From IMG/VR virus record IMGVR_UViG_2778261591_000005, positions 1 through 11,327 of that record: a DNA stretch of 11,327 bases; one strand, written 5' to 3'. The notes below the pieces were generated by a model. It was not told where the DNA came from and did not search any database. It was given only the letters and a program-made list of their open reading frames with translations. This document shows, one piece after another, positions 1 to 11,327 of this stretch; position 1 is the first letter of the stretch; each line of letters starts with the position of its first letter. Position numbers and translations under genes: made by a program. Origin of the DNA: a virus (Duplodnaviria; Heunggongvirae; Uroviricota; Caudoviricetes).

Positions 1-86
1 TACACCATTTGCTGGGGGTTATCTGATAGATGATTGTCTGCATGCCAACCTCATAAAACTTTCATCCACGGCAGTGGCACCACACT

Positions 87-203
87 TCAAACATTCGCTT
101 CACATCTTCTGTACAACACGGTGTTGTTTATGCAGCGAACAATTTTTACCGGGTAACCGGCACTGTCGGTATACAGTTGTCCCTGATTAATCAGAGCGAA
201 CAT
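87..203 (-). CDS. small hypothetical protein (38 aa from ATG at 203; frame is open upstream to 326)
   Basis: ORF track 87..326 minus. Internal ATG at 203..201 is preceded by AGGAG about 5 nt upstream (gcAGGAGaaaaaATG). The longer form would overlap the 3' end of the upstream ORF by about 90 nt. No recognisable domain. Confidence 0.25.
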   Translation of the reverse strand: MFALINQGQLYTDSAGYPVKIVRCINNTVLYRRCEANV

Positions 204-234
204 TTTTTCTCCTGCTCTCTGAATAGTGAGAACT

Positions 235-618
235 TCAGAGCCGTATGTTTGTAGCGGGTTCAATGCTGATAATTTCTGCTGAGATAAGCATCCCGGCAAG
301 CCAGAGTTCTCCGGACAGGTCTTCATCCTGGCATATCAGTTCGCCAATATTAATGGTGGCCATGATATCCGTTTCCCCTGTGCGCTCATCCAGGGCTTCT
401 TCATAAGGCAGCGTTGCGTACAGGCTTTCAATAGCGCAATTGATAACATCCAGTCCGGTCAGATTGCCGCCGACAGTAACTTCGAATGTTTCGCGGTATT
501 CCCATAGTCCGAAAGTTAATCGAACGGTTTGTTTTGCCATGCGTCCGCACGACGTCAGATTCGGGTCATAGTTCATTATTTGCGGTTGAGTATTCTGGTT
601 GTTCATCTGATTTTCCAT
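235..618 (-). CDS. hypothetical acidic protein, start uncertain
   Basis: ORF track 235..678 minus. The 678 start is GTG with no SD and overlaps the SPFH gene; in-frame ATG at 618 sits just after an intergenic hairpin; alternative ATGs at 606 and 540. Product is rich in E/D (…LPYEEALDERTGETDIMATINIGELICQDEDLSGELW…). No family recognised. Confidence 0.45.
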   Translation of the reverse strand: MENQMNNQNTQPQIMNYDPNLTSCGRMAKQTVRLTFGLWEYRETFEVTVGGNLTGLDVINCAIESLYATLPYEEALDERTGETDIMATINIGELICQDEDLSGELWLAGMLISAEIISIEPATNIRL

Positions 619-621
619 TAA

Positions 622-638
622 CCCGGCGGTTTGCCGGG
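622..638 (-). other. GC-rich intergenic stem-loop between the SPFH gene stop and the next ORF (no U-run, so not a classic terminator)
   Basis: Plus strand reads CCCGGC-ggttt-GCCGGG: 6-bp perfect stem, 5-nt loop, immediately downstream (in transcription sense) of the stop at 647..649. Confidence 0.35.
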
Positions 639-646
639 CGTGTAAG

Positions 647-1474
647 TTATTTAATCTGGATAAATGGTGTATTGGCACCGCTGGTCATGTATTGCGGCAG
701 AGTACCGTTCCACTTGTTGATGGCTTCCAGCTCCATGACGCCAGGGTTCTGGCGCAGAGCTTCACCGCGTAAACGAATAGCATCGGCCTCGGCCTGGGCT
801 TTTGTGCGAATCGCATCTGCCTGTCCGGCAGCTTCCGCGCGCAACATGTTAGCTTCCGCTTCGCGCTGTTTTACTTCCTGTTCGCGTTGCAGGGTTTTCT
901 GGTTCGCCGTGACTTTGGCATTAATGCTGTCGATAACGGTTGGCGGGTACTCCGGCTTACCCACATATGAGAGACTCATTACCTGAATACCGATGGGCGT
1001 CATTTCTGCCTGAATGTCTTTAAGAGCTGCATCCAGTAGTTCAGACTTCCCGCCGTCGATAAATTTGTCAGTGGTCATTTTGCTGGCCAGTCGATTGAGT
1101 GCGTCGGCGATCTTCTGGCGCAGGTCAGTATCGGTAATGTCATCCACGCCTTTGCGGTAGGTCTGAAACACCGTGGTAACTTTGGATGGATCAACTTTGT
1201 AGGCAACACCGATGTGATAGCCAATGGTTGTGCCGTCACTCATCTGGAAGCTGAACGGCTCATCGTAGGTCTTCATTTGTTTGAAGGTTGGGAAGATGTA
1301 AACTTCAGTGTTCCATCCCGTCCAGTAGCGCCCAACACCGACCACTTCACCGACGCCTTTATCGTCGCCAAGTTTGTTTACTTTGATGCCCACATTACCA
1401 GGCTCAACGCGATCGCAACCGACAAGGCCAATGGTCGGCAGAACAAGGGCTAAAGCAAAAAGTAATTTTTTCAT
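647..1474 (-). CDS. SPFH/band-7 (stomatin/prohibitin/HflKC-like) domain lipoprotein
   Basis: 275 aa. N-terminal signal peptide with lipobox (MKKLLFALALVLPTIGLVGC, Cys20). C-terminal Ala/Glu/Arg-rich helical segment typical of SPFH proteins (QREAEANMLRAEAAGQADAIRTKAQAEADAIRLRGEALRQNP). SD AAGGA 4 nt before ATG. Confidence 0.85.
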   Translation of the reverse strand: MKKLLFALALVLPTIGLVGCDRVEPGNVGIKVNKLGDDKGVGEVVGVGRYWTGWNTEVYIFPTFKQMKTYDEPFSFQMSDGTTIGYHIGVAYKVDPSKVTTVFQTYRKGVDDITDTDLRQKIADALNRLASKMTTDKFIDGGKSELLDAALKDIQAEMTPIGIQVMSLSYVGKPEYPPTVIDSINAKVTANQKTLQREQEVKQREAEANMLRAEAAGQADAIRTKAQAEADAIRLRGEALRQNPGVMELEAINKWNGTLPQYMTSGANTPFIQIK

Positions 1475-1659
1475 CTTTTATCCTTAGAAAAAGAAAGACC
1501 CTTATAAATGGCATAAATGCAGGGCGGGGTCAGACACGCCAGAGCAAAGCCAGAAATCACTGCTACCGTATCCTTCATTGATATGAGGGCCGGAACGATT
1601 AATCCGTAAATACATGTGATAATTGCCAGTGATATAACTATTCTGAAATAAATGTTCAT
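1471..1659 (-). CDS. small membrane protein (62 aa, two predicted TM helices), translationally coupled to the SPFH gene
   Basis: Hydrophobic sequence MNIYFRIVISLAIITCIYGLIVPALISM…VAVISGFALACLTPPCIYAIY. CAGGAGG just upstream of ATG at 1659. Its stop overlaps the SPFH start in an ATGA arrangement (1471..1474). Confidence 0.6.
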   Translation of the reverse strand: MNIYFRIVISLAIITCIYGLIVPALISMKDTVAVISGFALACLTPPCIYAIYKGLSFSKDKR

Positions 1660-1719
1660 GGTCCTCCTGATGTATGCGGCTTGCCTTATTTAATTGCGTC
1701 ATGGTTAATTTCGTTTACG

Positions 1720-2112
1720 TCAGAATGGTTTTGTTGCCATCAGTTCGTAATATCCGGCGCTCCATGTGTCATATTTTCTGAACCATTTTTCTGTATACTG
1801 TTTCCTGGCGATGAGTCTGCGCAGTCGTCTGATTGTTCGCTGGTGTGCGCGGGTATACTCTGTGGTTGATTCTCCACGTTTCCATATCTCATTCCCGTTG
1901 AAGATAAAACGCTTGTCAGGATAGCGTTGCCGGAATCCTGAACGTTCAAAAGCGCGGGTGGTCATAAAGAATGCCAGGTAACGAATTGCCGTTTTTCGGG
2001 TGAGGCATTTTTTTGTTCTTCCGTGGCGTGTTACAAAAAATAACGGGCCGACGGGTGTATCATGTTTCTGTAATGCCTGGTCAATGGCGCTGGCGGTGCG
2101 GTTGTCGATCAT
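1720..2112 (-). CDS. hypothetical basic protein (130 aa, Arg/Lys-rich; possibly nucleic-acid binding)
   Basis: GGGAGA SD about 9 nt before ATG at 2112. ATGA overlap with the stop of the upstream ORF 2109..2327. Basic composition (…RRLRRLIARKQYTEKWFRKY…). No family confidently recognised. Confidence 0.6.
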   Translation of the reverse strand: MIDNRTASAIDQALQKHDTPVGPLFFVTRHGRTKKCLTRKTAIRYLAFFMTTRAFERSGFRQRYPDKRFIFNGNEIWKRGESTTEYTRAHQRTIRRLRRLIARKQYTEKWFRKYDTWSAGYYELMATKPF

Positions 2113-2327
2113 TTCTTTATTTCTCCCGAATAACGTTCATGACTCATTACTTCCCAGTTCCGGCCGTCGCCTTTCGATAACAGCCGCCAGCAACGGTTAA
2201 CCTTCAGACTGAGATATCCGGTGCGCTGTATCCGATGCGGAAATATCCGTCGGCATCGGTACAACAACAGGACCTGCAATGCCTGCCGGTGGATCCGCTC
2301 AGGAATGCGTGTTGCTGTTAATGCCAC
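2109..2327 (-). CDS. small Arg-rich hypothetical protein (72 aa, GTG start)
   Basis: Strong SD (tCAGGAGGaaaccgGTG) and ATGA coupling to the downstream 130-aa gene. Composition is unusual (R/W/C-rich), so coding status is uncertain. Confidence 0.4.
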   Translation of the reverse strand: MALTATRIPERIHRQALQVLLLYRCRRIFPHRIQRTGYLSLKVNRCWRLLSKGDGRNWEVMSHERYSGEIKK

Positions 2328-2514
2328 CGGTTTCCTCCTGAGCAGGTGCTGTTATCTGATACCCCGCTCTTTCTGCCAGCCGTATGAATGTATCCATGCT
2401 GGCAATCAGCTCGCCATCGCGGACTTTGCAGACACCTGTGACTTGGCCATTTTCAATTGTCATAACGATCTGCACTTTTTCGCGCACAACAGATACAGGG
2501 GATAAATTAGCCAT
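2299..2514 (-). CDS. hypothetical protein (71 aa)
   Basis: GGAGG SD about 9 nt before ATG at 2514. Start overlaps the stop of the upstream gene by 8 nt (coupled). Confidence 0.55.
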   Translation of the reverse strand: MANLSPVSVVREKVQIVMTIENGQVTGVCKVRDGELIASMDTFIRLAERAGYQITAPAQEETGGINSNTHS

Positions 2515-2872
2515 CAGTTAATTCCTCCACTGGTATATTTTCTTTCGCGTAATCAATAACCTCTTGAAAAAGGTTGTCTATAATTAACTTTCCGGTTTCA
2601 GCCAGGTATTCAGTATGTTGATTAATCCCGATAGCATTCTGGTATGCAGTGTGGATTTCGGTTTCACCCTCCACCCGGCCCAATTCACCACGGGTAATAC
2701 CTTCGAAGCGTAACAGCAACTGGTTTATAAACTGTTCAGTTATTTCTATAGTCGCAATGTTCCCATCCGGAAGGTCAACAATAAGCAGATTACCACCTGT
2801 TTTACGTTTTATTCGATGGAGTGCCGCAACAGCTATACGGCGACGATATGTATTAATGGGTTCATATGCCAT
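2507..2872 (-). CDS. hypothetical protein with Arg-rich N-terminus; first gene of the leftward operon (lambda N-like position, function unproven)
   Basis: 121 aa. Residues 8-24 are TYRRRIAVAALHRIKRK, followed by an acidic C-terminal half. Located just left of a roughly 200-bp intergenic region. Confidence 0.6.
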   Translation of the reverse strand: MAYEPINTYRRRIAVAALHRIKRKTGGNLLIVDLPDGNIATIEITEQFINQLLLRFEGITRGELGRVEGETEIHTAYQNAIGINQHTEYLAETGKLIIDNLFQEVIDYAKENIPVEELTDG

Positions 2873-2875
2873 TTG

Positions 2876-2989
2876 TTATTTCCCGTATGCTTTACGCAGA
2901 AACAAGCAGGCAATATGCATGTAATTTTTACCGTGTTGTGCAATAAGACAGGCCGTTTTGTGTGATGCCTTATGTTTTATAAAAGTCAT
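2876..2989 (-). CDS. possible leader/upstream small ORF (37 aa, basic)
   Basis: Hand-translated (below the ORF-track size cut-off): MTFIKHKASHKTACLIAQHGKNYMHIACLFLRKAYGK. GGAGG SD 7 nt before ATG at 2989. Its stop TAA lies one codon before the ATG of the 121-aa gene. Confidence 0.25.
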   Translation of the reverse strand: MTFIKHKASHKTACLIAQHGKNYMHIACLFLRKAYGK

Positions 2990-3071
2990 AATAATGCCTC
3001 CAGTGGATTAAGTGTGTGATAATCCCCGGCGATTAAGCCGTAATATATTATTCGGAGATAACTTGTTTTAT

Positions 3072-3272
3072 TTAACTGGATAGTTCTTTTTCAGATGCTG
3101 CTTCAGCATAGCAACGTGCAAATTCAAGAACTTCATCACCTGTTCTTTTTATTGCGTCGTTGTCTGACATTTGTAGTACGATAACTGCGCATAATAAATT
3201 ATGGATATTGTTTGCAAAGGAATCCGGTGCTAGGCATAAGCCTTCATACTTATCATGGATATTGCCAGTCAT
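3072..3272 (-). CDS. small protein (66 aa), paralog of the N-terminal domain of the adjacent tandem-HTH protein
   Basis: ATG at 3272 with AAGGAG 8 nt upstream (the track's GTG at 3314 gives a longer form). Shares DSFA-NI-NLL-AV … G-EV-EF--YA--AAS with residues about 27-75 of the 230-aa protein. Confidence 0.6.
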   Translation of the reverse strand: MTGNIHDKYEGLCLAPDSFANNIHNLLCAVIVLQMSDNDAIKRTGDEVLEFARCYAEAASEKELSS

Positions 3273-3277
3273 TGTTG

Positions 3278-3970
3278 CTACTCCTTTGCTTCTGATTTTC
3301 CCGTTAACAACCACATCAGGTCACAATTAAGCGCACTGGCCAGTGGTACTATCTGATCAGCAGGAACTTCACAGGTGCCGCATTCCCAGTCGTTTATGGG
3401 GTCGCTGTAGGTGTGAATCATGCGTGCCAGGTCTGCTTCTGTTAAGCCCAGTTTTTTACGGGCGCTTTTGATGCGCGCACCAATATTTTCCACATGGACT
3501 TCAGGCGCATTTACGCGAATAACTGACTCGCTGTTTTTTTCACTCAGCAGAGAAAGCGGATCGCATCCCAGGACGTTTGCCAGGGGGGTAAGCATGCTGA
3601 TGGTTGGCTCGTACTCTCCACTCTCCCATTGCAGAATAATTTCTTCATCAAGATCGAGTAGTCTGGCAAGTTCGGTGGTCGTTAAGCCGCAGGCTTCGCG
3701 TTGAGTGCGAAGGTTAACCAGCCAGCTTTCAGGGAAGGATTGTTTTTGTTGTGCAGGAGAAGCCGCAGATAGAGCATATTCATGGATAAATTCCATTACC
3801 TCAATGCCCAGTTCCTTTGAGCGAGCACAATCCAGAAGATGGAATGTGCGTACAGCACTTAGCAAATTTGCAATATTTAATGCAAAGGAATCAAGTTCTA
3901 AGCCCTTAAGCGAAACACAGCCGCAGTTGATAAGATTAGTTGTTTCTGGAGTTGCGTTTAGTGTCTTCAT
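3278..3970 (-). CDS. transcriptional regulator with N-terminal domain of unknown function plus two tandem XRE-family HTH domains
   Basis: 230 aa. HTH1: LRTQREACGLTTTELARLLDLDEEIILQWESGEYEPTISMLTPLANVLGCDPLSLL. HTH2: IGARIKSARKKLGLTEADLARMIHTYSDPINDWECGTCEVPADQIVPLASALNCDLMWLLTG. Own promoter upstream and terminator-insulated from the cI-like gene. Confidence 0.8.
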   Translation of the reverse strand: MKTLNATPETTNLINCGCVSLKGLELDSFALNIANLLSAVRTFHLLDCARSKELGIEVMEFIHEYALSAASPAQQKQSFPESWLVNLRTQREACGLTTTELARLLDLDEEIILQWESGEYEPTISMLTPLANVLGCDPLSLLSEKNSESVIRVNAPEVHVENIGARIKSARKKLGLTEADLARMIHTYSDPINDWECGTCEVPADQIVPLASALNCDLMWLLTGKSEAKE

Positions 3971-4023
3971 ATATCCACCAACAATTTTAAATTGAATAAA
4001 ATCAAGTTATAATTGATGGTGCG

Positions 4024-4052
4024 ATATTATGCTTTGAAAAACAGGCTGTCAA
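4024..4052 (-). promoter_or_regulatory. sigma70-type promoter for the tandem-HTH gene
   Basis: Minus strand TTGACA (4052..4047), 17-nt spacer, TAATAT (4029..4024). Predicted start near 4017, giving a leader of about 47 nt to ATG at 3970. Confidence 0.5.
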
Positions 4053-4082
4053 GAAAAAATTGATATCGTATATTTTAGGCAG

Positions 4083-4103
4083 AAAAAAACGGGCAAAGCC
4101 CGT
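4083..4103 (-). terminator. intrinsic terminator after the cI-like gene
   Basis: Minus strand: stem CGGGC/GCCCG with 3-nt loop followed by a run of 6-7 U (plus strand AAAAAAA-CGGGC-AAA-GCCCG-T). Lies 13 nt beyond the cI-like stop. Confidence 0.55.
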
Positions 4104-4115
4104 TAAAATCAAAGA

Positions 4116-4805
4116 CTAACCAAATCTGTTTATATTGAATGGTACTGATGAGATCACTTTAGACTGGATATAAAGCAGAGCTAACCCCTCTTTTTCGATG
4201 CTCCATGGTTGATAATTAGGGTTATCAGATAACACCATGATTTTACTTCCAATTTTTTGAAGTCTTTTCACGTAGCATTCTCCATCAAAACAAAATGCAT
4301 AAATGCCATCGCCATCAAAATAAGTTACTGTCTTATCGAGAAAAAGAAGGTCGCCAGGTGAGATTGTGGGAGCCATACTGTCTCCTCTGGCGTTACCTAT
4401 TTCTATATTTTTGAATGCCCGATTTCCAACAAGACGTCGGGCATATTCAGGATCAAGTTCTATTGAGCGCACTACATCTATCAAGTCACCACGGACATGA
4501 GTTCCATCACCGCAACTAAACTCAACATCAAGGACATTAAACACGACGCTATCTGTTCTTGTCTGGAGTTTCTCTTGCGAGGAAAAGGTTGGTGAGGAGT
4601 CTTCGCCTAAGAACCAAGATTGTGGATAACCGCTAATCTCTGATAAATGCGCGAGCTTATCACTTCGTGGAAATGTTTTTCCTGTTGTCCAGTACTGCAC
4701 TGATTGCGCACTCACACCTAACTTGCGGGCCAGTTGAGCCTGAGTCCATCCTTTTGCTTTCAGCATCGCGGCTATTCGATTTTCCGTGTTTTTGACGTTC
4801 TTCAT
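4116..4805 (-). CDS. cI-like prophage repressor (N-terminal HTH, C-terminal S24/LexA-type autopeptidase domain)
   Basis: HTH: GWTQAQLARKLGVSAQSVQYW. S24 catalytic motifs: GDSMAPTISPGDLLFLDK (Ser) and YVKRL (Lys) about 36 aa later. Possible Cys-Gly cleavage site in FSCGDG. ATG at 4805 preferred over the TTG at 4811 used by the track. Confidence 0.9.
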   Translation of the reverse strand: MKNVKNTENRIAAMLKAKGWTQAQLARKLGVSAQSVQYWTTGKTFPRSDKLAHLSEISGYPQSWFLGEDSSPTFSSQEKLQTRTDSVVFNVLDVEFSCGDGTHVRGDLIDVVRSIELDPEYARRLVGNRAFKNIEIGNARGDSMAPTISPGDLLFLDKTVTYFDGDGIYAFCFDGECYVKRLQKIGSKIMVLSDNPNYQPWSIEKEGLALLYIQSKVISSVPFNINRFG

Positions 4806-4938
4806 GACCAAATCCTGTGGGTTTCTTTACAAGGATAAATCTTTACTTGATTTTAGTGTATTCGATCCTTTTGCAACTTGCATGTTAATTTAAACTTGAT
4901 GTATTCTTGATTTATAAAGTTAATATTGGTGATTTGTT
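4806..4938. promoter_or_regulatory. divergent promoter/operator region of the cI-like/Cro-like switch
   Basis: 133-bp AT-rich spacer between divergent genes. Three copies of an 11-bp motif: ACTTGATTTTA (4845..4855), ACTTGATGTAT (4894..4904), TCTTGATTTAT (4905..4915), the last two in tandem. Palindromic TGCAA-c-TTGCA at 4871..4881. Candidate rightward promoter TTAAAC-N17-TATAAA (4890..4918). Confidence 0.5.
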
Positions 4939-5211
4939 ATGAAAGGAAATGATTACGACAAACTTCGTACATTAATTGCGCAAAATGCCATAGCGCGAAA
5001 TCTTGGTGTGACGCCGCAAGCGGTGAATCAGTGGTTTTCAAAAAACACAATTCCTGCTCGTTTTGTTTTACGCGTATGTGAAGTAGTTGCATGGAAGGTC
5101 ACGCCACATGACTTAAGGCCAGATCTTTATCCTCACCCTGAAGATGGAATTCCTGATTCGTTACGCAAAATTTCAAATCCAAGCCTAGCGCACACGGAAG
5201 ATGGGAAGTGA
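4939..5211 (+). CDS. Cro-like HTH regulator (YdaS/DUF1019-type)
   Basis: 90 aa. HTH LGVTPQAVNQWFSKNTIP followed by the family-typical VTPHDLRPDLYP motif. Divergent from the cI-like gene. Confidence 0.85.
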   Translation: MKGNDYDKLRTLIAQNAIARNLGVTPQAVNQWFSKNTIPARFVLRVCEVVAWKVTPHDLRPDLYPHPEDGIPDSLRKISNPSLAHTEDGK

Positions 5212-5281
5212 TGGTGGTGATATGAGCGAAAAAATAACTATTAAATACGATGGGACAACCATTTCGATTGCCCCGATCACA

Positions 5282-5575
5282 TTAGCGTTCGCTGAGAAGT
5301 TGTTGGTAAGCCTTAAAGGATGCGAACTGCATTCTACCTTCGGCATTGATTCCAATGCCTTCGCTTGTACACCAAGCGATGAACTCGGCTGTATCCGCTT
5401 CAACTTTAATAACTCGTTGCCCGCCTCTTTCGACACGCTTAATCAATTTTTCAGCGTCGTGTTTCCACTCGGTGTAACTGTCGGAGAGCACATCAGCATC
5501 AGTAAAAATATTTTTGAGCTCATGATACTGAATCGCATCGCGAAACCAGAATAAACCAACGGCCTGAACTTTCAT
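5282..5575 (-). CDS. hypothetical protein (97 aa), orphan gene convergent with the Cro-like gene
   Basis: Strong SD (AAGGAGGttcgacATG). Protein-like composition (MKVQAVGLFWFRDAIQYHELKNIFTDADVLSDSYTEWKHDAEKLIKRVERGG…). Opposite orientation to the flanking rightward operon. Confidence 0.65.
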   Translation of the reverse strand: MKVQAVGLFWFRDAIQYHELKNIFTDADVLSDSYTEWKHDAEKLIKRVERGGQRVIKVEADTAEFIAWCTSEGIGINAEGRMQFASFKAYQQLLSER

Positions 5576-5688
5576 GTCGAACCTCCTTTGGTTCTTTTGT
5601 TTATAGGGATCAAAAGGATAACTGAAGGAAGGTTCGGCACCAATAAGTACGAATGTGCGGAATCTTAAAAGAATTTATCCGTAAGGAG

Positions 5689-6402
5689 ATGGCAGTGAAC
5701 ACCGCAATTTTTAACGGCAAAGCATCCATGACCAGCCTTGAAATCGCAGAGCTGGTGGGTAGTCAGCACTCAGATGTTAAACGTAGTATCGAACGCCTGG
5801 TTGCTAAAAACATCATCCGGAAACCGCCAATGGCTGTTTCCGAGAAAATCAATAACTTAGGTTTTAAAGTTCAATATGAGCATTACCTGTTTGAAGGAGA
5901 ACAAGGTAAACGCGACAGCATCATTGTCGTCGCTCAGCTCTGCCCTGAATTCACTGCTCGCCTGGTAGATCGCTGGCGCGAACTGGAAGAACAGATCCGT
6001 AAGCCAATGAGCGAAATCGAAATGGTTGCCGCGATGGCTCTTGAAGCTGTTCGTCAGCAGAAACGGATCACTCAGGTGGAAGAAAAAGTCAGCCACGTTG
6101 CCGAAACAGTTGAGCAAATCAAAAAGGGCACCATTCGTGAGGGCTATGCCGGATATCGCCAACTGAAAGCGAAAACCGGTTTGTCAGATGATAAATGCCG
6201 CAATCTGGTGAACGCTTATCAAATTCCTACAGACACCCATGAGTTCATGACGCCGGACGGATTGTTGTCACGTCGCGCAATTGTTGCCGTGGAACCTTTT
6301 ATGGCTGCTTTTTATCGGGTTATGGAGGAAGCAGAACCGCGAGGGACTCGCTGGTATCACCCGAAAATGGGGTTATTTCAGGTTATTGGTTGGCAGCGGT
6401 GA
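5689..6402 (+). CDS. Rha-family phage regulatory protein (paralog 1)
   Basis: N-terminal motif TSLEIAELVGSQHSDVKRSIERL matches the Rha-type signature. Start ambiguous: ATG 5653, ATG 5689 (AAGGAG directly abutting) or GTG 5695 (6-nt spacing). Confidence 0.7.
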   Translation: MAVNTAIFNGKASMTSLEIAELVGSQHSDVKRSIERLVAKNIIRKPPMAVSEKINNLGFKVQYEHYLFEGEQGKRDSIIVVAQLCPEFTARLVDRWRELEEQIRKPMSEIEMVAAMALEAVRQQKRITQVEEKVSHVAETVEQIKKGTIREGYAGYRQLKAKTGLSDDKCRNLVNAYQIPTDTHEFMTPDGLLSRRAIVAVEPFMAAFYRVMEEAEPRGTRWYHPKMGLFQVIGWQR

Positions 6403-6425
6403 AAAAAAGCCGGGAGTAACCCGGC
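6402..6425 (-). terminator. intrinsic terminator oriented for minus-strand transcription
   Basis: Minus strand: GCCGGG-uuacu-CCCGGC followed by UUUUUUU. On the plus strand the hairpin is preceded by A7 and not followed by a T-run, so it is unidirectional leftward. Confidence 0.55.
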
Positions 6426-6624
6426 TCACTCAACATCAATAACGGGGAGCTGTTTCGCATAAAACGGCTCCGAAACATCCAAGAACAGTTCTAAAGATAT
6501 CAGCAGCTATATGATCATTTCAAGACCAAATATTGATTCTGCAATTTCGGGACGTTACACTGTCTCTGCACCTTATAAAGCGGGTGCCGGGGGTCGCAGC
6601 CCGGAATTGTCAACGGCGATATAT

Positions 6625-6644
6625 GACGCGCCAGCGTCTTTTTT
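6625..6644 (+). terminator. candidate intrinsic terminator or attenuator on the plus strand between the two Rha-like genes
   Basis: GACGC-gcca-GCGTC followed by TTTTTT. Stem is short (5 bp) but GC-rich. Confidence 0.4.
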
Positions 6645-6810
6645 ATCGTCCGCGCTCACGCACGCCAGAATTATGGTGGGCTGGGCAGGGGAGCCGAAAG
6701 GCTCGCCGGTCTCCGTTGACGCCGGTACTGCGAACCCTGTTCAGTCTGCCACCAGTGAGTTTCGCAGCTCCGGTGGTGGAAGTTTTCCACAGTCAACGGA
6801 GGCTGCCATC

Positions 6811-7362
6811 ATGGCTACGATCCCAACCCTCACTCAACCTGAAATTGCCATCGTTGATGGTCAGGCTGTTACTTCATCCCTGGCTGTTGCCAATTTCTTC
6901 TCCAAGCGTCATGACGATGTACTGAAAAAGATCCGCACGCTTGAATGCTCCGCATCATTCACTGCCCGCAATTTTTCGGTGAGTGATTACACCGATTGCA
7001 CAGGCCGCAAACTACCTTGCTATCAAATCACCCGTGATGGCTTCGCGTTCCTTGCTATGGGCTTTACTGGCAAACGTGCAGCCCGGTTCAAAGAGGCATA
7101 CATCAACGCCTTTAACCAGATGGAGAAGAATTTATCTGGTGCTGACGCGGTTGATATGTCAGCTGTCGCACGAAACGCCAGAGGCGTATACCTGCATTTG
7201 CGTGAAATCCATCAAATCTGGACAAGCCAGCTTTATCCAATGCTTAAGGCCATTGAATCTCCGCTGGCTAGCAAACTGTACGACCGTGTTGGTGATGCTG
7301 TTTTTGGCGCTGCACTTGTTGATTCCAGGCTGAATGGTTCTGACAAGGAGGTTCGCCCATGA
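6811..7362 (+). CDS. Rha-family phage regulatory protein (paralog 2)
   Basis: Motif TSSLAVANFFSKRHDDVLKKIRTL. ATG at 6811 with GGAGG 9 nt upstream. The track's longer ORF from 6511 has a low-complexity G/S/A/P-rich N-terminal extension judged non-coding. Confidence 0.8.
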   Translation: MATIPTLTQPEIAIVDGQAVTSSLAVANFFSKRHDDVLKKIRTLECSASFTARNFSVSDYTDCTGRKLPCYQITRDGFAFLAMGFTGKRAARFKEAYINAFNQMEKNLSGADAVDMSAVARNARGVYLHLREIHQIWTSQLYPMLKAIESPLASKLYDRVGDAVFGAALVDSRLNGSDKEVRP

Positions 7363-7553
7363 TTAGTTACGAAATCATCATCTCCACTACGGAATACAGA
7401 AACGATGTATCAGTTCGCACGGATGTATCTGTCTGGCACCGTCGCTATAAATCCAGAAAAACAGCGGAACTGAAAGCGGCAGAGATGTGTGAAACCATCT
7501 CAATGAAAGGTAGCCCGGTTAAATACGTAACTACGGCGGAGGTGCGTCCATGA
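7359..7553 (+). CDS. hypothetical small protein (64 aa)
   Basis: AAGGAGG 8 nt upstream. ATGA overlap with the Rha paralog 2 stop. Confidence 0.55.
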   Translation: MISYEIIISTTEYRNDVSVRTDVSVWHRRYKSRKTAELKAAEMCETISMKGSPVKYVTTAEVRP

Positions 7554-7774
7554 TCCGCCACATCGTTAATTCCCTGTATCACCGATACAACCGTTGCCCC
7601 CGAGTGGGGCAGTGGTTCGCCACCAGCAACGGTCACGTTCTGCGGGTTTGCCTAGTCAACGCTGAAAGCCAGAAAGTCGTGTGCGAACTACAGGGGCGTA
7701 GCTACACCATCAGTTACCCTCTGGCGGTATTTCTGTCTGGAAAAATGTTTAAACGCCTGGGAGGTGTGTTATGA
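7550..7774 (+). CDS. hypothetical small protein (74 aa)
   Basis: GGAGG upstream. ATGA overlaps at both ends (coupled to the previous ORF and to the O-like gene). Confidence 0.55.
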   Translation: MIRHIVNSLYHRYNRCPRVGQWFATSNGHVLRVCLVNAESQKVVCELQGRSYTISYPLAVFLSGKMFKRLGGVL

Positions 7775-8580
7775 GCATGGAGCTGATGGTGAAAGCGATG
7801 AAAATTCGTGTGGGAAATCCGTTGCGAAAACTGGTTCTGATTAAGCTGGCTGATAATGCCAGCGATCAGGGCGAGTGCTGGCCCAGCTATCAGCATATTG
7901 CTGATCAGTGCGAGATTAGCAAACGTTCTGTGATGAATCATATTACGGCTCTTTGTGAATCTGGACTGGTAAAAAAAGTTTCCCGGAAAGGTGAAAAAGG
8001 TAACTCAAGTAATATCTATCTCCTTCATCTGGATGGTGCAGGAGATTCACTAGGGGGTAGTGCAAATAATTCACTATCTGGTGCAGCAAATTCACCAGGT
8101 AGTGCAGGAGTTGCACCAGGGGGTAGTGCAGGAGATTCACCCAGAACCAGTCACTCTTTTGAACCAGTCAAAGAACCAGTCAATGAATCAACTATTGGCG
8201 CATCCGCTGACGCGTCTGCACCAGCGCGTTCTGCCAGACAGGAATATTCACCGGAATTTGAACAGGCCTGGCAGGAATATCCCAAACGTGCTGGTGGTAA
8301 TTCCAAGTCAGCAGCCTTCAAAGCCTGGAAAGCCCGTATCAGGGAAGGTGTGACACCCGAAACCATGCTCAACGGTGTGAAACGCTATGCCGCCTGGGTG
8401 CGTGTCTCAGGAAATACCGGCACCCAGTTCGTGAAGCAGGCATCGACGTTCTTTGGCCCCGATCGGCACTTTGACGAATCCTGGCAACAGTCAGCAGCTC
8501 CCGGAGGTGGGCGGGGCAAAAGCCTCCCGATCTCGGGATTCAGTGAACAGGACTACGGCTCAACGAACTTCAACTGGTGA
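7771..8580 (+). CDS. phage replication initiator (lambda O-like; N-terminal HTH domain, low-complexity linker, C-terminal domain)
   Basis: N-terminal LRKLVLIKLADNASDQGECWPSYQHIADQCEISKRSVMNHITALCESGLV, a replisome-organiser type HTH. Central G/S/A-rich linker is encoded by iteron DNA. GGAGG SD. Followed by helicase loader and helicase genes. Confidence 0.85.
   Translation: MSMELMVKAMKIRVGNPLRKLVLIKLADNASDQGECWPSYQHIADQCEISKRSVMNHITALCESGLVKKVSRKGEKGNSSNIYLLHLDGAGDSLGGSANNSLSGAANSPGSAGVAPGGSAGDSPRTSHSFEPVKEPVNESTIGASADASAPARSARQEYSPEFEQAWQEYPKRAGGNSKSAAFKAWKARIREGVTPETMLNGVKRYAAWVRVSGNTGTQFVKQASTFFGPDRHFDESWQQSAAPGGGRGKSLPISGFSEQDYGSTNFNW
8034..8140. repeat. iterons (putative origin of replication) inside the O-like gene
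   Basis: Five roughly 20-bp direct repeats with 21-24 bp period (consensus about GGTAGTGCAGGAGATTCACC) at 8034, 8055, 8079, 8098 and 8121. Confidence 0.7.
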
Positions 8581-8597
8581 TTTTGTGGGGTGTGAAA

Positions 8598-9488
8598 ATG
8601 ATTAATTTCCTGAACAAACAACACATGCAACACGACAAAGCGCAATTACTCAACCGCAGTGCGGAGCTGGAGGAGGAGATGCAGTTTGCCCGTGCCGGGA
8701 AGCGTCCGTGGCGCTGTGAGCACTGGCTGGCAAGCGATGAGACTGCAGAGTGTGAGAAGCACGGAAAATATACTCGTCTGGTGTTGAAAGGGCCAGATAT
8801 TCGCGGAGAAACCATCAAACGGGTATCCGGATGTCCGCGCTGCATCGCAGAAGAACTGGATCACGTGCATGACGAATTACGCGCCCTGAAGGTTCGTGAA
8901 TTACTCGATCAGGCCGGTATTGCCCGCCGCTTTGAGAACTGCGAGTTTGAGAACTATCAGGCTGTGAATGCCGGGGCTCAGCGGAATCTTGATGCCTGCC
9001 AGCGTTATGTCGATGCCTGGAAGGATCACCTCGCGGCGGGTACCAGCATGATCATGATTGGCAATTGCGGTACCGGGAAAAATCACCTGGCTGTATCAAT
9101 GGCAAAAAATATTATTCGCCACCACCTGGCGACCGTCGAAATTACGGATGTTATGCGACTGACCCGCGCTGTGAAAAATACATGGCGTCACAATTCTGAA
9201 CGCACTGAAGATGAAGTTATTGACCATTTTGTATCACTGGACCTGCTCATCATTGATGAAGTCGGTGTTCAGTTTGGCACTCCTGCCGAGATAACCATCC
9301 TGCAGGAAATCATCAACGCGCGTTACGAAAGTATTCTGCCAACAATTCTGATCAGCAACCTGACGTTTGACCAGCTTAAGGAGTCCATTGGTGAGCGAAT
9401 TGTAGATCGCGTTACTGACGGCGGGCGTAACCGCCTGGTGTTTGGCTGGGAGAGCTACCGGGCAAATATCGGAGGTGTTGCCGCATGA
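8598..9488 (+). CDS. DnaC/IstB-like AAA+ helicase loader
   Basis: Walker A GNCGTGKNHLA, Walker B LLIIDEVG, sensor ISNLT. N-terminal region carries Cys/His pairs (CEH…CEKH…CPRC) suggesting a zinc-binding module. Start is ATG 8598 or GTG 8577 (overlapping the O-like stop). Confidence 0.85.
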   Translation: MINFLNKQHMQHDKAQLLNRSAELEEEMQFARAGKRPWRCEHWLASDETAECEKHGKYTRLVLKGPDIRGETIKRVSGCPRCIAEELDHVHDELRALKVRELLDQAGIARRFENCEFENYQAVNAGAQRNLDACQRYVDAWKDHLAAGTSMIMIGNCGTGKNHLAVSMAKNIIRHHLATVEITDVMRLTRAVKNTWRHNSERTEDEVIDHFVSLDLLIIDEVGVQFGTPAEITILQEIINARYESILPTILISNLTFDQLKESIGERIVDRVTDGGRNRLVFGWESYRANIGGVAA

Positions 9489-10885
9489 CCAGCCAGAACA
9501 ACCCGGCATGGCGTAACGATGACCTGGAAGGTGCGGTGATTGGCGCGTTTTTTCTGCGTGGGGCTGATCCGGAAGTGATGGATATTCTGGCCACGCTTCC
9601 GGCGGATGTATTTTTCGTGCGTCAGTACCGGGATATTTACGCGGGGATTTGCAGACAGGCCCGCGTATCCGGCGTCATTGACCCCGTGCTGCTGTGCAAT
9701 GAGATGCCGGAACTTGCCCCGGTGATTACCGACACCGGGCGCAAAACCTGGGTGAAGTCTTCACTGGAGCACTATGTTGCAGCGCTGCGACGCAATGCCG
9801 CACTGCGCGATGCAGAAAAAACACTGACTGAAGCATTACAGAATTTACGTGATGCACATACCTGCGAAGCGGCAGAAGATGCCCTGAAGGATGCGCAGAA
9901 CATGATGGCCTCACTGTCGACCGGAAAGGGCGTCATTCAGCCGGTTCACATTGATGATGTCCTTCCGGAAGTGGTCGACCGTGTTGAATGCCGCAATCAG
10001 GGACTGGAGAAATCCAGGGCGCTGATGACCGGTATTGATGAACTGGACGCAAAAACGGGCGGTATGGAGCCCGGAGACCTGGTATTCATTGCCGCCCGTC
10101 CTTCGATGGGGAAAACCGAACTTGCGCTGGACATCATCGACAAGGTGACTGAGCAGGGGCATGGCGTGCTTCTGTTCACCATGGAGATGGCGAACATCCA
10201 GATTGGTGAACGTATGGTGTCTGCTGCCGGTGGAATGCCGGTATCCCGTCTTAAGTCTGTTGCCCGTTTTGAAGATGAAGACTGGGCGCGTTTCTCACAG
10301 GGCGTGGGACGAATGACGGGGCGTAATATCTGGATGGTGGACCAGGCAAATCTGACCATTGATGAGATATGTGCAACCACGAGGTACCACCGGATGAAGC
10401 ATCCGGAAACGGCGCTGGTGGTGGTCGATTACCTCGGCCTGATTAAAACCCGCAGCACGGGGCGTCACGACCTTGCGGTGGGGGAAATCTCAAAGGGACT
10501 TAAAAGCCTGGCAAAATCCGGCGGTTTTCCGCTGATTGCTCTGAGCCAGCTCTCCCGCGGCGTGGAATCCAGACCCAATAAACGTCCCATGAACTCAGAC
10601 CTGAAAAACTCCGGGGAAATCGAGGCTGATGCCGACATCATTCTGATGCTTTACAGGGATGAGGTGTATAACCCGGATACACAGGCGAGAGGCATAGCAG
10701 AAATCAACATCACGAAACAGCGTAATGGCACGCTCGGGACCATTTACCGGCGTTTTCATAACGGACATTTTCTGCCTGTGGACCAGGAGAGTGCCCGGGT
10801 TCTTTCCACACCCATGACGCCGGGCAATCCGCGCAGATACAGCAATAACCGCATGTCGGGCAGTAAAGCGGAGCGTTTATTTTGA
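9485..10885 (+). CDS. DnaB-family replicative DNA helicase
   Basis: 466 aa. Walker A ARPSMGKT, Walker B VVVDYLGLI, ALSQLSR arginine-finger region, and the DnaB signature DLKNSGEIEADADIILMLYRDEVY. ATGA overlap with the loader gene. Confidence 0.92.
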   Translation: MTSQNNPAWRNDDLEGAVIGAFFLRGADPEVMDILATLPADVFFVRQYRDIYAGICRQARVSGVIDPVLLCNEMPELAPVITDTGRKTWVKSSLEHYVAALRRNAALRDAEKTLTEALQNLRDAHTCEAAEDALKDAQNMMASLSTGKGVIQPVHIDDVLPEVVDRVECRNQGLEKSRALMTGIDELDAKTGGMEPGDLVFIAARPSMGKTELALDIIDKVTEQGHGVLLFTMEMANIQIGERMVSAAGGMPVSRLKSVARFEDEDWARFSQGVGRMTGRNIWMVDQANLTIDEICATTRYHRMKHPETALVVVDYLGLIKTRSTGRHDLAVGEISKGLKSLAKSGGFPLIALSQLSRGVESRPNKRPMNSDLKNSGEIEADADIILMLYRDEVYNPDTQARGIAEINITKQRNGTLGTIYRRFHNGHFLPVDQESARVLSTPMTPGNPRRYSNNRMSGSKAERLF

Positions 10886-11139
10886 ATAACAGAACAGCCA
10901 CTGTTTCACCGGAACAACTTCGTCGCCAGGCGCAGGAGATGCTTCGTTGTGCTGAACAGATGGAAAAAATGAGCGTGGCAAAGGATACGCTCCGCAAGCA
11001 GCTTACTCCGGCGCTTCGTGATCTGCTGCAGGCAAAACACCGCACACAAAAGGCGGTGGATGAGCTGGTGGATTGCGTGGCGGAACTGGAAGGCAAGGTA
11101 AGCCAGTTTGAAACTCTGGTGAAGGAGTTTACTGCGTGA
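10882..11139 (+). CDS. hypothetical small coiled-coil protein (85 aa, TTG start overlapping the helicase stop)
   Basis: Helical and charged (…LRRQAQEMLRCAEQMEKM…VDELVDCVAELEGKVSQFETLVKEF). Internal ATG at 10939 is an alternative start. Confidence 0.45.
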   Translation: MNNRTATVSPEQLRRQAQEMLRCAEQMEKMSVAKDTLRKQLTPALRDLLQAKHRTQKAVDELVDCVAELEGKVSQFETLVKEFTA

Positions 11140-11190
11140 TGGCTGAATTTTTTCTCCTGTGTTCATGCAATATCGTTCGCTGAGGTGACC

Positions 11191-11327
11191 GTGAGAGCAT
11201 TGTTGACTCCTGAAATTGCCCCGCGAATGGGGATTGTATTGTTCAGACCCGGTTCAGAGCTGATGCCCCTGTTTATGCAGGGGCGTGTCCTGCTGGAGCC
11301 TGAGCCGGAACGTTATTCATCTTTCGC
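11191..11327 (+). CDS. possible 5' end of a further gene running off the window
   Basis: Frame opens at 11140 right after the stop of the 85-aa ORF and remains open to the window end (…VTVRALLTPEIAPRMGIVLFRPGSELMPLFMQGRVLLEPEPERYSSF). Candidate GTG at 11191 with GAGG upstream. Not in the ORF track because it is truncated. Confidence 0.2.
   Translation, partial: MRALLTPEIAPRMGIVLFRPGSELMPLFMQGRVLLEPEPERYSSF

Follow-up and report, generated by a model that had tools for sequence, protein, structure and literature searches.

Organisation and prevalence of the replication genes

The window analysed here is a stretch of 11,327 nucleotides from a tailed phage (Caudoviricetes; IMG/VR record IMGVR_UViG_2778261591_000005, positions 1 to 11,327). 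Its right-hand part, positions 7771-10885, holds genes for a replication initiator, a DnaC-like helicase loader and a DnaB-family helicase, which lie side by side in this order on the plus strand and thus display the initiator-loader-helicase (ILH) layout. We assign the segment to the ILH-type theta-replication modules of lambdoid, P27-like Escherichia coli prophages, and its transcription is likely to run rightward, away from the immunity region; together with the mechanism proposed below, we hold this reading with a probability of roughly 0.7. The following features were delimited in the module and directly beside it.

7771..8580, plus strand: replication initiator, 269 amino acids (aa), with an N-terminal winged helix-turn-helix (HTH), a low-complexity linker, a helical C-terminal core and a 30-aa tail
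8036..8140, plus strand: five origin iterons, within the initiator gene
8143..8182, plus strand: three (A/T)GAACCAGTCA repeats, directly 3' of the iterons
8191..8484, plus strand: conserved C-terminal core of the initiator, EFEQAW..YPKRAGGNSK..FFGPDRHFDESW
8485..8580, plus strand: variable C-terminal tail of the initiator, PGGGRGKSLPISGFSEQDYGSTNFNW
8598..9488, plus strand: DnaC/IstB-family AAA+ helicase loader, 296 aa
8598..8915, plus strand: N-terminal domain (N-domain) of the loader, aa 1-106, with a putative zinc site C52/H55/C79/C82
8925..9485, plus strand: AAA+ ATPase domain of the loader, from the alignment to E. coli DnaC
9485..10885, plus strand: DnaB-family replicative helicase of 466 aa; helical domain at the N-terminus, RecA-type domain at the C-terminus
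7359..7774, plus strand: two small open reading frames (ORFs) of 64 aa and 74 aa, PHROG 7046 and 1153, families without an assigned function
10882..11139, plus strand: predicted coiled-coil ORF, 85 aa, TTG start, PHROG 2565/2539, families without an assigned function

An initial annotation, made from the letters of the DNA, had named the same three gene products, and Pfam matches, PHROG matches and alignments to DnaC and DnaB all agree with it. Its suggestion that the arrangement is unusual did not survive comparison, as this is the common form among relatives. Initiator C-domain, loader and helicase were contiguous in all 80 viral contigs retrieved by loader similarity, and again in 77 of the 79 contigs retrieved by similarity to the initiator C-domain; the two remaining contigs comprise one that is cut by the contig end and one with a solo-type initiator. 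At a coverage threshold of at least 80%, the loader-helicase pair was present in about 6% of complete E. coli genomes (333/5426). A nucleotide search of annotated phages found matching loader and helicase genes in phiP27 and in two dozen Stx1a/Stx2a-converting phages. The best match among them was Stx2_14040 (LC567818), the reference genome of the 'Eru7' replication type, which is notably widespread among European Shiga toxin (Stx) phages (PMC8951638). The same arrangement recurs in Pseudomonas phage F10. The module is nearly identical to sequences that are annotated in RefSeq and, in phiP27, have been annotated since deposition.

The passage of PMC9144972 that cites Weigel and Seitz 2006 presents ILH as the typical organisation, and the class name used here comes from that citing paper, not directly from Weigel and Seitz 2006. 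The initial annotation had assumed that lambdoid modules carry either a loader or a helicase beside the initiator. This fits many lambdoid prophages, among them those of the Sakai strain, which have one or the other and not both (PMC2669165), but it is not general: the three-gene form is a recognised, common and already known class. In the literature searched, we found no experimental study of an ILH module of the phiP27 L17-L19 type.

An initiator with iterons inside its own gene

The initiator ATG at 7771 is preceded by a GGAGG Shine-Dalgarno sequence 7 nt upstream. The N-terminus of the protein matches Pfam HTH_36 at residues 17-67 (2.6e-11), and residues 22-85 match DnaD_N below threshold only. 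PHROG matches (270, 3e-89; 8540; 391) carry the label 'replication initiation / O-like'. Pfam detected HTH_36 instead of Phage_rep_O (PF04492), which keeps the protein out of the lambda O type, and no relative of solved structure was found. The initiator works like lambda O, with iterons within its own gene, yet stands outside the O family. Its C-domain also occurs fused to Phage_rep_O in another protein (P0197).

Five iterons of the form GTGCA-N5-T(T/G)CAC start at 8036, 8060, 8081, 8102 and 8126, spaced by 24, 21, 21 and 24 nt, and the stretch that contains them encodes the low-complexity GGSANNSLSGAANSPGSAGVAPGGSAGDS linker of the initiator. The pattern is absent from the rest of the window; the match count for the window was 6 where chance would give 0.06, and none of 200 shuffles reached the observed number. 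Within the 80 viral contigs retrieved by loader similarity, the iteron array was found in all 23 loci with an initiator N-domain of 71% or higher identity to that of the window and in none of the other 57, where the N-domain differs or could not be detected. An initiator and its cognate origin would be expected to be inherited together in this way, as lambda O and ori-lambda are, and the array lies where the origin of an ILH module is looked for, in or near the initiator gene. Among related initiators the copy number ranges from 4 to 11 (4, 5, 8 and 11 were seen; the loci include L045 4291-4527 and L059 4386-4550), and more iteron copies go with a correspondingly longer low-complexity linker in the protein. 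The GAACCAGTCA repeats at 8143-8182 lie in a mildly A+T-richer stretch and, from their position and by analogy with the lambda ori, are a candidate unwinding or accessory origin element.

The C-terminal core of the initiator also occurs outside ILH modules. It is ~85% identical in mEp460 and cdtI, and the same stretch of SfV shows 88% nucleotide identity; in all three phages the gene that follows the initiator is transcription-factor-like or methyltransferase-like, and neither loader nor helicase is present. Because these phages carry the core without either partner, we ruled it out as a region specific for the phage loader or helicase; only the last 30 residues of the initiator differ. Solo initiators (L088 of mEp460, 3001-3819; L089 of cdtI, 3001-3885; L166) belong to the same family, including the N-domain and the iterons, and lack loader and helicase. 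Their different tail ends in ...DPYFKASYDNVDYSQIPAGFRG and may hold a motif for recruiting a host factor.

A DnaC-type loader with intact AAA+ motifs

The loader belongs to the Pfam family IstB_IS21 (PF01695; 3.7e-16, 59.8 bits against a gathering cut-off of 24.1) and matches PHROG 50, 'DnaC-like helicase loader' (1.5e-84). Its residues 92-293 align with residues 46-242 of E. coli DnaC in the cryo-electron microscopy structure of the DnaB-DnaC complex (6QEL; E=7e-33). Against the cellular DnaC equivalog NF005931 it reaches 148 bits, below the cut-off of 357, and covers profile positions 43-243 only, so that it falls outside the cellular equivalog. The Walker A motif GNCGTGKN (9060-9083) keeps the unusual GTGKN of E. 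coli DnaC, the Walker B motif IIDEVG places D220/E221 at 9255-9260, and both the sensor-I region ILISN and the arginine region ERIVDR (ERVMDR in the alignment with DnaC) can be recognised. All four positions are invariant in an alignment of 23 loader relatives. The concern that the gene might encode a degenerate AAA+ protein can thus be set aside. Searches returned 791 loader homologs at E<=1e-5, all of ~292-296 aa and from prophages of Enterobacterales, with Salmonella, Citrobacter, Enterobacter, Klebsiella, Serratia and Pantoea among the hosts of the family.

Two start codons were considered for the loader. GTG 8577 would give a protein of 303 aa and a GTGA overlap with the initiator; ATG 8598 leaves a gap of 17 nt after the initiator stop. 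Because distant homologs all start with MLNF or MINF, as does the phiP27 ORF, and because RefSeq calls the equivalent of ATG 8598 in a 92% identical prophage, these comparisons favour ATG 8598 as the most likely start. In RefSeq/GenBank, phiP27 L18 is given as 252 aa with a start at 4534 of its locus (L001), probably too late; from ATG 4414 (L001 4414-5292) it would comprise 292 aa, begin as its homologs do and include the zinc motif CEKHG...CPDC.

The choice of start bears on the translational coupling initially proposed for all three genes. The coupling stands for loader and helicase, whose stop and start overlap as ATGA at 9485-9488 with a GGAGG 8 nt upstream, but an overlap of initiator and loader would need GTG 8577. 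As ATGA overlaps are also found at the upstream junctions 7359, 7550 and 7771, and a TTGA at 10882, close packing is an operon-wide habit and not particular to these genes. The small ORFs at 7359..7774 are part of this early operon too, as ATGA junctions tie them to the preceding Ash-Rha gene and to the initiator that follows; a small-ORF homolog also precedes the initiator in mEp460, SfV and cdtI.

A 505-aa protein encoded in six contigs (P0060) joins loader residues 1-200 in frame to the helicase from residue 163 onward. We rejected it as a natural single-chain loader-helicase, since the internal deletion has removed half of each protein; it represents a decayed copy of the module.

The N-terminal Cys/His domain of the loader

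The alignment with E. coli DnaC begins at DnaC residue 46, and the N-domain of the loader stands in place of the helicase-binding N-terminus of DnaC. The initial annotation had noted a cluster of Cys and His residues here that might bind zinc. With residues numbered from ATG 8598, the cluster resolves into C52 (8751-8753), H55 (8760-8762), C79 (8832-8834) and C82 (8841-8843). These four residues and G56 are invariant in the 23 loader relatives (59-89% identity), so the C52-x2-H55...C79-x2-C82 part of the cluster held up; its first element, 'CEH', is not conserved across the same 23 relatives. The motif CxxHG...CxxC is shared by the loaders of phiP27, mEpX1, Pseudomonas phage F10 and Burkholderia phage DC1, and is missing from the DnaC homolog of Gifsy-1, which has a short DnaC-like N-terminus.

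AlphaFold2 modelled loader residues 1-110 with confidence (predicted local distance difference test score = 84.5) as two long helices, one N-terminal and one C-terminal, with three strands between them. In this model, C52 and H55 lie where the first strand ends and in the turn that follows, and C79 and C82 at the start of the last helix, an arrangement that resembles a treble-clef site capping a helical hairpin. From this model and the conservation of the ligands we infer that zinc binding is plausible. No Pfam family covers the N-domain, and a Foldseek search of its model against the PDB matched no chain. A profile of the N-domain retrieved just 23 clusters, mostly fragments, from 1.84 billion cluster representatives; the domain diverges too fast for that search to map its true range.

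Possession of the motif does not follow possession of a helicase. The sequenced, viable coliphage mEpX1 encodes a lambda-type O, a 303-aa loader with the motif and then Ren, and neither the annotation nor tblastn revealed a DnaB-like gene in its complete genome. DC1 and its relatives likewise have no helicase although the DC1 loader carries the motif, while Gifsy-1 lacks both. We therefore rejected the zinc N-domain as a mark of loaders that serve a helicase of the phage's own. Because mEpX1 and DC1 carry such loaders without their own helicase, loaders with this motif can evidently serve host DnaB.

A phage clade of DnaB-family helicases

The helicase contains the DnaB C-terminal domain DnaB_C (PF03796; 8.6e-74, 248.6 bits against a cut-off of 27) and the DnaB N-terminal domain (PF00772; 1e-5, 26 bits against a cut-off of 23). 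It aligns with residues 34-457 of E. coli DnaB (E=1e-64) with all ATPase motifs in place, as the Walker A motif ARPSMGKT, the Walker B motif VVVDYLGL, SQLSR and the arginine region match their DnaB counterparts, which establishes it as a member of the DnaB family. Its scores remain below the curated cut-offs for cellular DnaB (TIGR00665, 313 against 385) and for phage_DnaB (TIGR03600, 280 against 499). Judged by sequence identity, it forms a distinct phage clade, ~40% identical to P22-type gene 12 proteins and 91-98% identical to the helicases of phiP27 and Stx phages.

The 85-aa ORF that overlaps the helicase gene at 10882-11139 is found at 54-99% identity in E. coli-type loci and is absent from more distant modules. 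It could encode an accessory protein of the helicase.

Exchange of the initiator tail together with the loader N-domain

The module is mosaic. A joint lies near 8191, and for most Stx phages the match begins at query position 421; the first exchangeable piece comprises the initiator N-domain and the iterons. A second variable cassette of ~550 nt (~8485-9039) covers the initiator tail and the N-terminal 147 aa of the loader, which are exchanged together between the conserved initiator core on one side and the conserved AAA+/helicase block on the other (loci L090-L168). Across 78 loci, the type of initiator tail tracks the type of the neighbouring loader without exception. The tail found in the window pairs with loaders at 83-100% identity and the phiP27-type tail with loaders at 55-66%, and a tail ending in '...IPAGFRG' occurs without loader or helicase. 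Helicases at 98-99% identity were found with either loader type. No part of the module diverges faster than the loader N-domain, which drops to ~34% identity where the AAA+ domain has 71% and the helicase 92-96%.

The joint exchange hints that the initiator tail contacts the loader N-domain. Physical adjacency of the two segments could by itself give the same pattern, and we treat this confounded linkage as a lead only.

Proposed mechanism and alternatives

The simplest reading of the locus is that the phage owns a matched pair of loader and helicase. The winged-HTH domain of the initiator would bind the five iterons inside its own gene and open the adjacent DNA. Loader and helicase, of which the overlapping cistrons would yield similar amounts, would form a complex via the zinc-stabilised hairpin domain at the loader N-terminus, and the origin-bound initiator would recruit this complex through its C-terminal domain or tail. 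ATP-dependent ring opening by the loader would then deposit the phage helicase on single-stranded DNA, where host DnaG primase and DNA polymerase III would complete the replisome. Helicase loading would in this way do without host DnaB and DnaC. The 11-kb window encodes neither a primase nor a polymerase, so those of the host are still needed. For this reason, the earlier description of the system as self-sufficient was too strong. The zinc motif, also present in mEpX1 and DC1, which have no helicase, is no sign of a self-contained system.

A bolder version of this proposal, which we regard as doubtful, is that the Cys3His hairpin of the loader is a helicase-binding domain of a third and structurally uncharacterised kind within the DnaC/DnaI family, unlike both the N-terminus of E. 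coli DnaC and the DnaI-N fold, that it would also read the initiator tail, and that, together with the phage helicase, it would free Stx-phage replication from host DnaB/DnaC.

Several observations weigh against a dedicated pair. The evidence that the phage helicase, and not host DnaB, is the target of the loader is all indirect. Near-identical helicases (92-99%) pair with loader N-domains that are only ~34% identical, so the fit between N-domain and helicase is not tightly co-evolved. The same initiator core functions in mEp460, SfV and cdtI without loader or helicase, so that the initiator is evidently able to work with factors of the host. For zinc binding, the evidence consists of residue conservation and the AlphaFold2 model.

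Two further points on this side also feed the main rival, a division of labour with the host: zinc-motif loaders work in the helicase-less phages mEpX1 and DC1, where they share the CxxH...CxxC N-domain, and P22-type phages use DnaB-like helicases, ~40% identical to that of the window, although they have no AAA+ loader. The DnaC-like loader would accordingly recruit host DnaB, and the initiator would load the phage helicase directly, as in P22, by parallel or redundant routes. Such a division would suit the independent recombination of loader and helicase types, in which 98% identical helicases accompany 57% or 85% identical loaders. Its difficulty is that every locus examined keeps the two genes adjacent, with stop and start overlapping, that none of these loci contains the helicase clade without a loader, and that SPP1 provides a precedent for a dedicated loader. 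We consider the division of labour unlikely.

The loader might instead be turned against the host, sequestering or misdirecting DnaB so as to stop or hijack chromosomal replication while the phage helicase drives the phage forks. Host DnaB binding is conceivable in view of the closeness of the AAA+ domain to that of E. coli DnaC (E=7e-33); interference of phages with host loaders is documented in Staphylococcus aureus (PMC4887207), and an excess of DnaC is known to inhibit replication (PMC4828956). However, the DnaB-binding segment at the N-terminus of DnaC has been swapped here for an unrelated domain, all catalytic motifs, needless for an inhibitor, are kept, there is no evidence of toxicity, and the module resides in temperate phages of ~6% of complete E. 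coli genomes, which together render this alternative very improbable.

Decay in a cryptic prophage, with the genes intact by chance and disused, is least credible of all and already largely refuted: deletion derivatives do exist (the P0060 fusion in 6 contigs) and many E. coli prophages are defective (PMC2669165), but the three ORFs are full-length with every catalytic motif, the helicase is 97.6-98.5% identical to those of inducible Stx phages and ~91.6% to that of viable phiP27, and the divergence across 160 loci, with conserved catalytic cores and variable specificity regions, indicates purifying selection.

Beyond the initial annotation, the analysis locates the origin, corrects the loader start, defines the Cys3His ligands, unlinks the motif from ownership of a helicase and delimits the cassette of initiator tail and loader N-domain. 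As it stands, the outcome is that a common prophage replication cassette has been annotated correctly, which in itself matters little. The replication of Stx phages governs the dosage of the toxin genes, and the Eru7/P27 type is widespread among European Stx phages (PMC8951638). Direct knowledge of how the module depends on host factors would thus be useful to the Stx field, while not overturning ideas on helicase loading. Should the third helicase-binding domain and the own helicase both prove true, toxin genes would be amplified independently of host DnaB/DnaC in a large class of Stx phages.

Genes surrounding the replication module

The interval from cro to the replication genes contains two genes of Rha-family regulators or anti-repressors (5653-6402 and 6511-7362), of which the second encodes an Ash-Rha fusion, with Phage_ASH at residues 16-111 and Phage_pRha at 121-206. 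Rha genes near cI fit the definition of Eru7, and in a related prophage a Rha gene directly follows cro. Between cro and the first Rha gene, two ORFs of 117 aa (5201-5554, plus strand) and 97 aa (5282-5575, minus strand) overlap almost fully, and neither has a Pfam match.

The cI-cro intergenic region (4812-4938) contains (A)CTTGAT(T/G)T repeats at ~4846, 4895 and 4906 that are likely operator half-sites; Tandem Repeats Finder detected an 11-nt repeat at 4895-4915 in the same region. On the minus strand, a gene at 3278-3970 encodes a 230-aa protein with two HTH_3-type domains and adjoins the LexA/S24-type repressor gene at 4116-4811; it could be a second immunity regulator. The leftward early region includes, at 647-1474 (minus strand), a gene for an SPFH/Band 7 protein whose N-terminus resembles that of a lipoprotein (LVGC). 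A hydrophobic ORF of 62 aa (1471-1659) follows this gene, which also adjoins a DUF5406 gene (235-678), and the trio is kept in the related prophage of E. coli MS8345.

Comparison with known replication systems

The closest known systems are phiP27 and the Eru7 class of Stx phages, represented by Stx2_14040. In phiP27, L17-L18-L19 are the same genes in the same order, with L18 annotated as 'DnaC-like helicase loader' and L19 as 'replicative DNA helicase'. Both systems have the same Rha/Ash genes upstream as the window, and their helicases are 91.6-98.5% and their initiator C-domains 84-100% identical to those of the window. The loader is 84-100% identical to the Eru7/PPyecE type and ~59% identical to the phiP27 type. 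Unlike in phiP27 or Stx2_14040, the initiator N-domain and the iterons are of the SfV/mEp460/cdtI type, with no nucleotide match to these two phages before query position 421, and unlike the Eru7 Stx phages, the 11 kb of the window contain no stx genes. The 'phage P27' of the Wegrzyn group is a lambda-type O/P replicon with ATCCCTCAAAACGAGGGA iterons (PMC7466680); as both replicon and iterons differ, we rejected its identification with the L17-L19 module of phiP27 (AJ298298).

A more distant counterpart is found in gp52-gp54 of Pseudomonas phage F10, which repeat the ILH order in overlapping cistrons and encode a DnaC-type loader with CxxH...CxxC and a DnaB-type helicase. The F10 loader is only ~32% identical to that of the window and has a shorter N-terminal helix. 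Lambda O/P and P22 gene 18/gene 12 likewise combine iterons in the initiator gene, a mosaic joint between the DNA-binding and partner-binding halves, and a position to the right of cI/cro. Unlike either of them, the module of the window has no Phage_rep_O and no lambda P homolog, and contains both a loader and a helicase.

Among cellular systems, the E. coli DnaC-DnaB complex (6QEL/6QEM) aligns with both the AAA+ domain and the helicase, and residues 1-45 of DnaC are replaced here by the 100-aa Cys3His domain. Cellular dnaC itself is believed to have originated from such phage genes (PMC5109545). In Bacillus subtilis DnaI, an N-terminal zinc domain with three Cys and one His is the helicase-interaction domain and is needed for helicase binding (PMC2673437). 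Like DnaI (2K7R), the loader of the window has an N-domain of ~100 aa before a DnaC/DnaI-type AAA+ module; the order of the ligands differs, being C67-x2-C70...H84...C101 in DnaI and C52-x2-H55...C79-x2-C82 in the loader. Neither a sequence match to the DnaI N-domain nor a fold match to 2K7R was obtained, and on present evidence the loader N-domain is neither a DnaI-N homolog nor of the DnaI type.

The division of tasks proposed for a phage-owned pair has its model in Bacillus phage SPP1. The SPP1 helicase G40P is a detectable relative of the helicase of the window (3bgw, E=5e-48), and the initiator families differ. The loader of the window is a DnaC-type AAA+ ATPase, in contrast to G39P, which is small and not an AAA+ protein. 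In SPP1, it is experimentally established that the origin-bound initiator G38P receives a phage-encoded G39P-G40P complex and that host primase and polymerase are used (PMC8965321).

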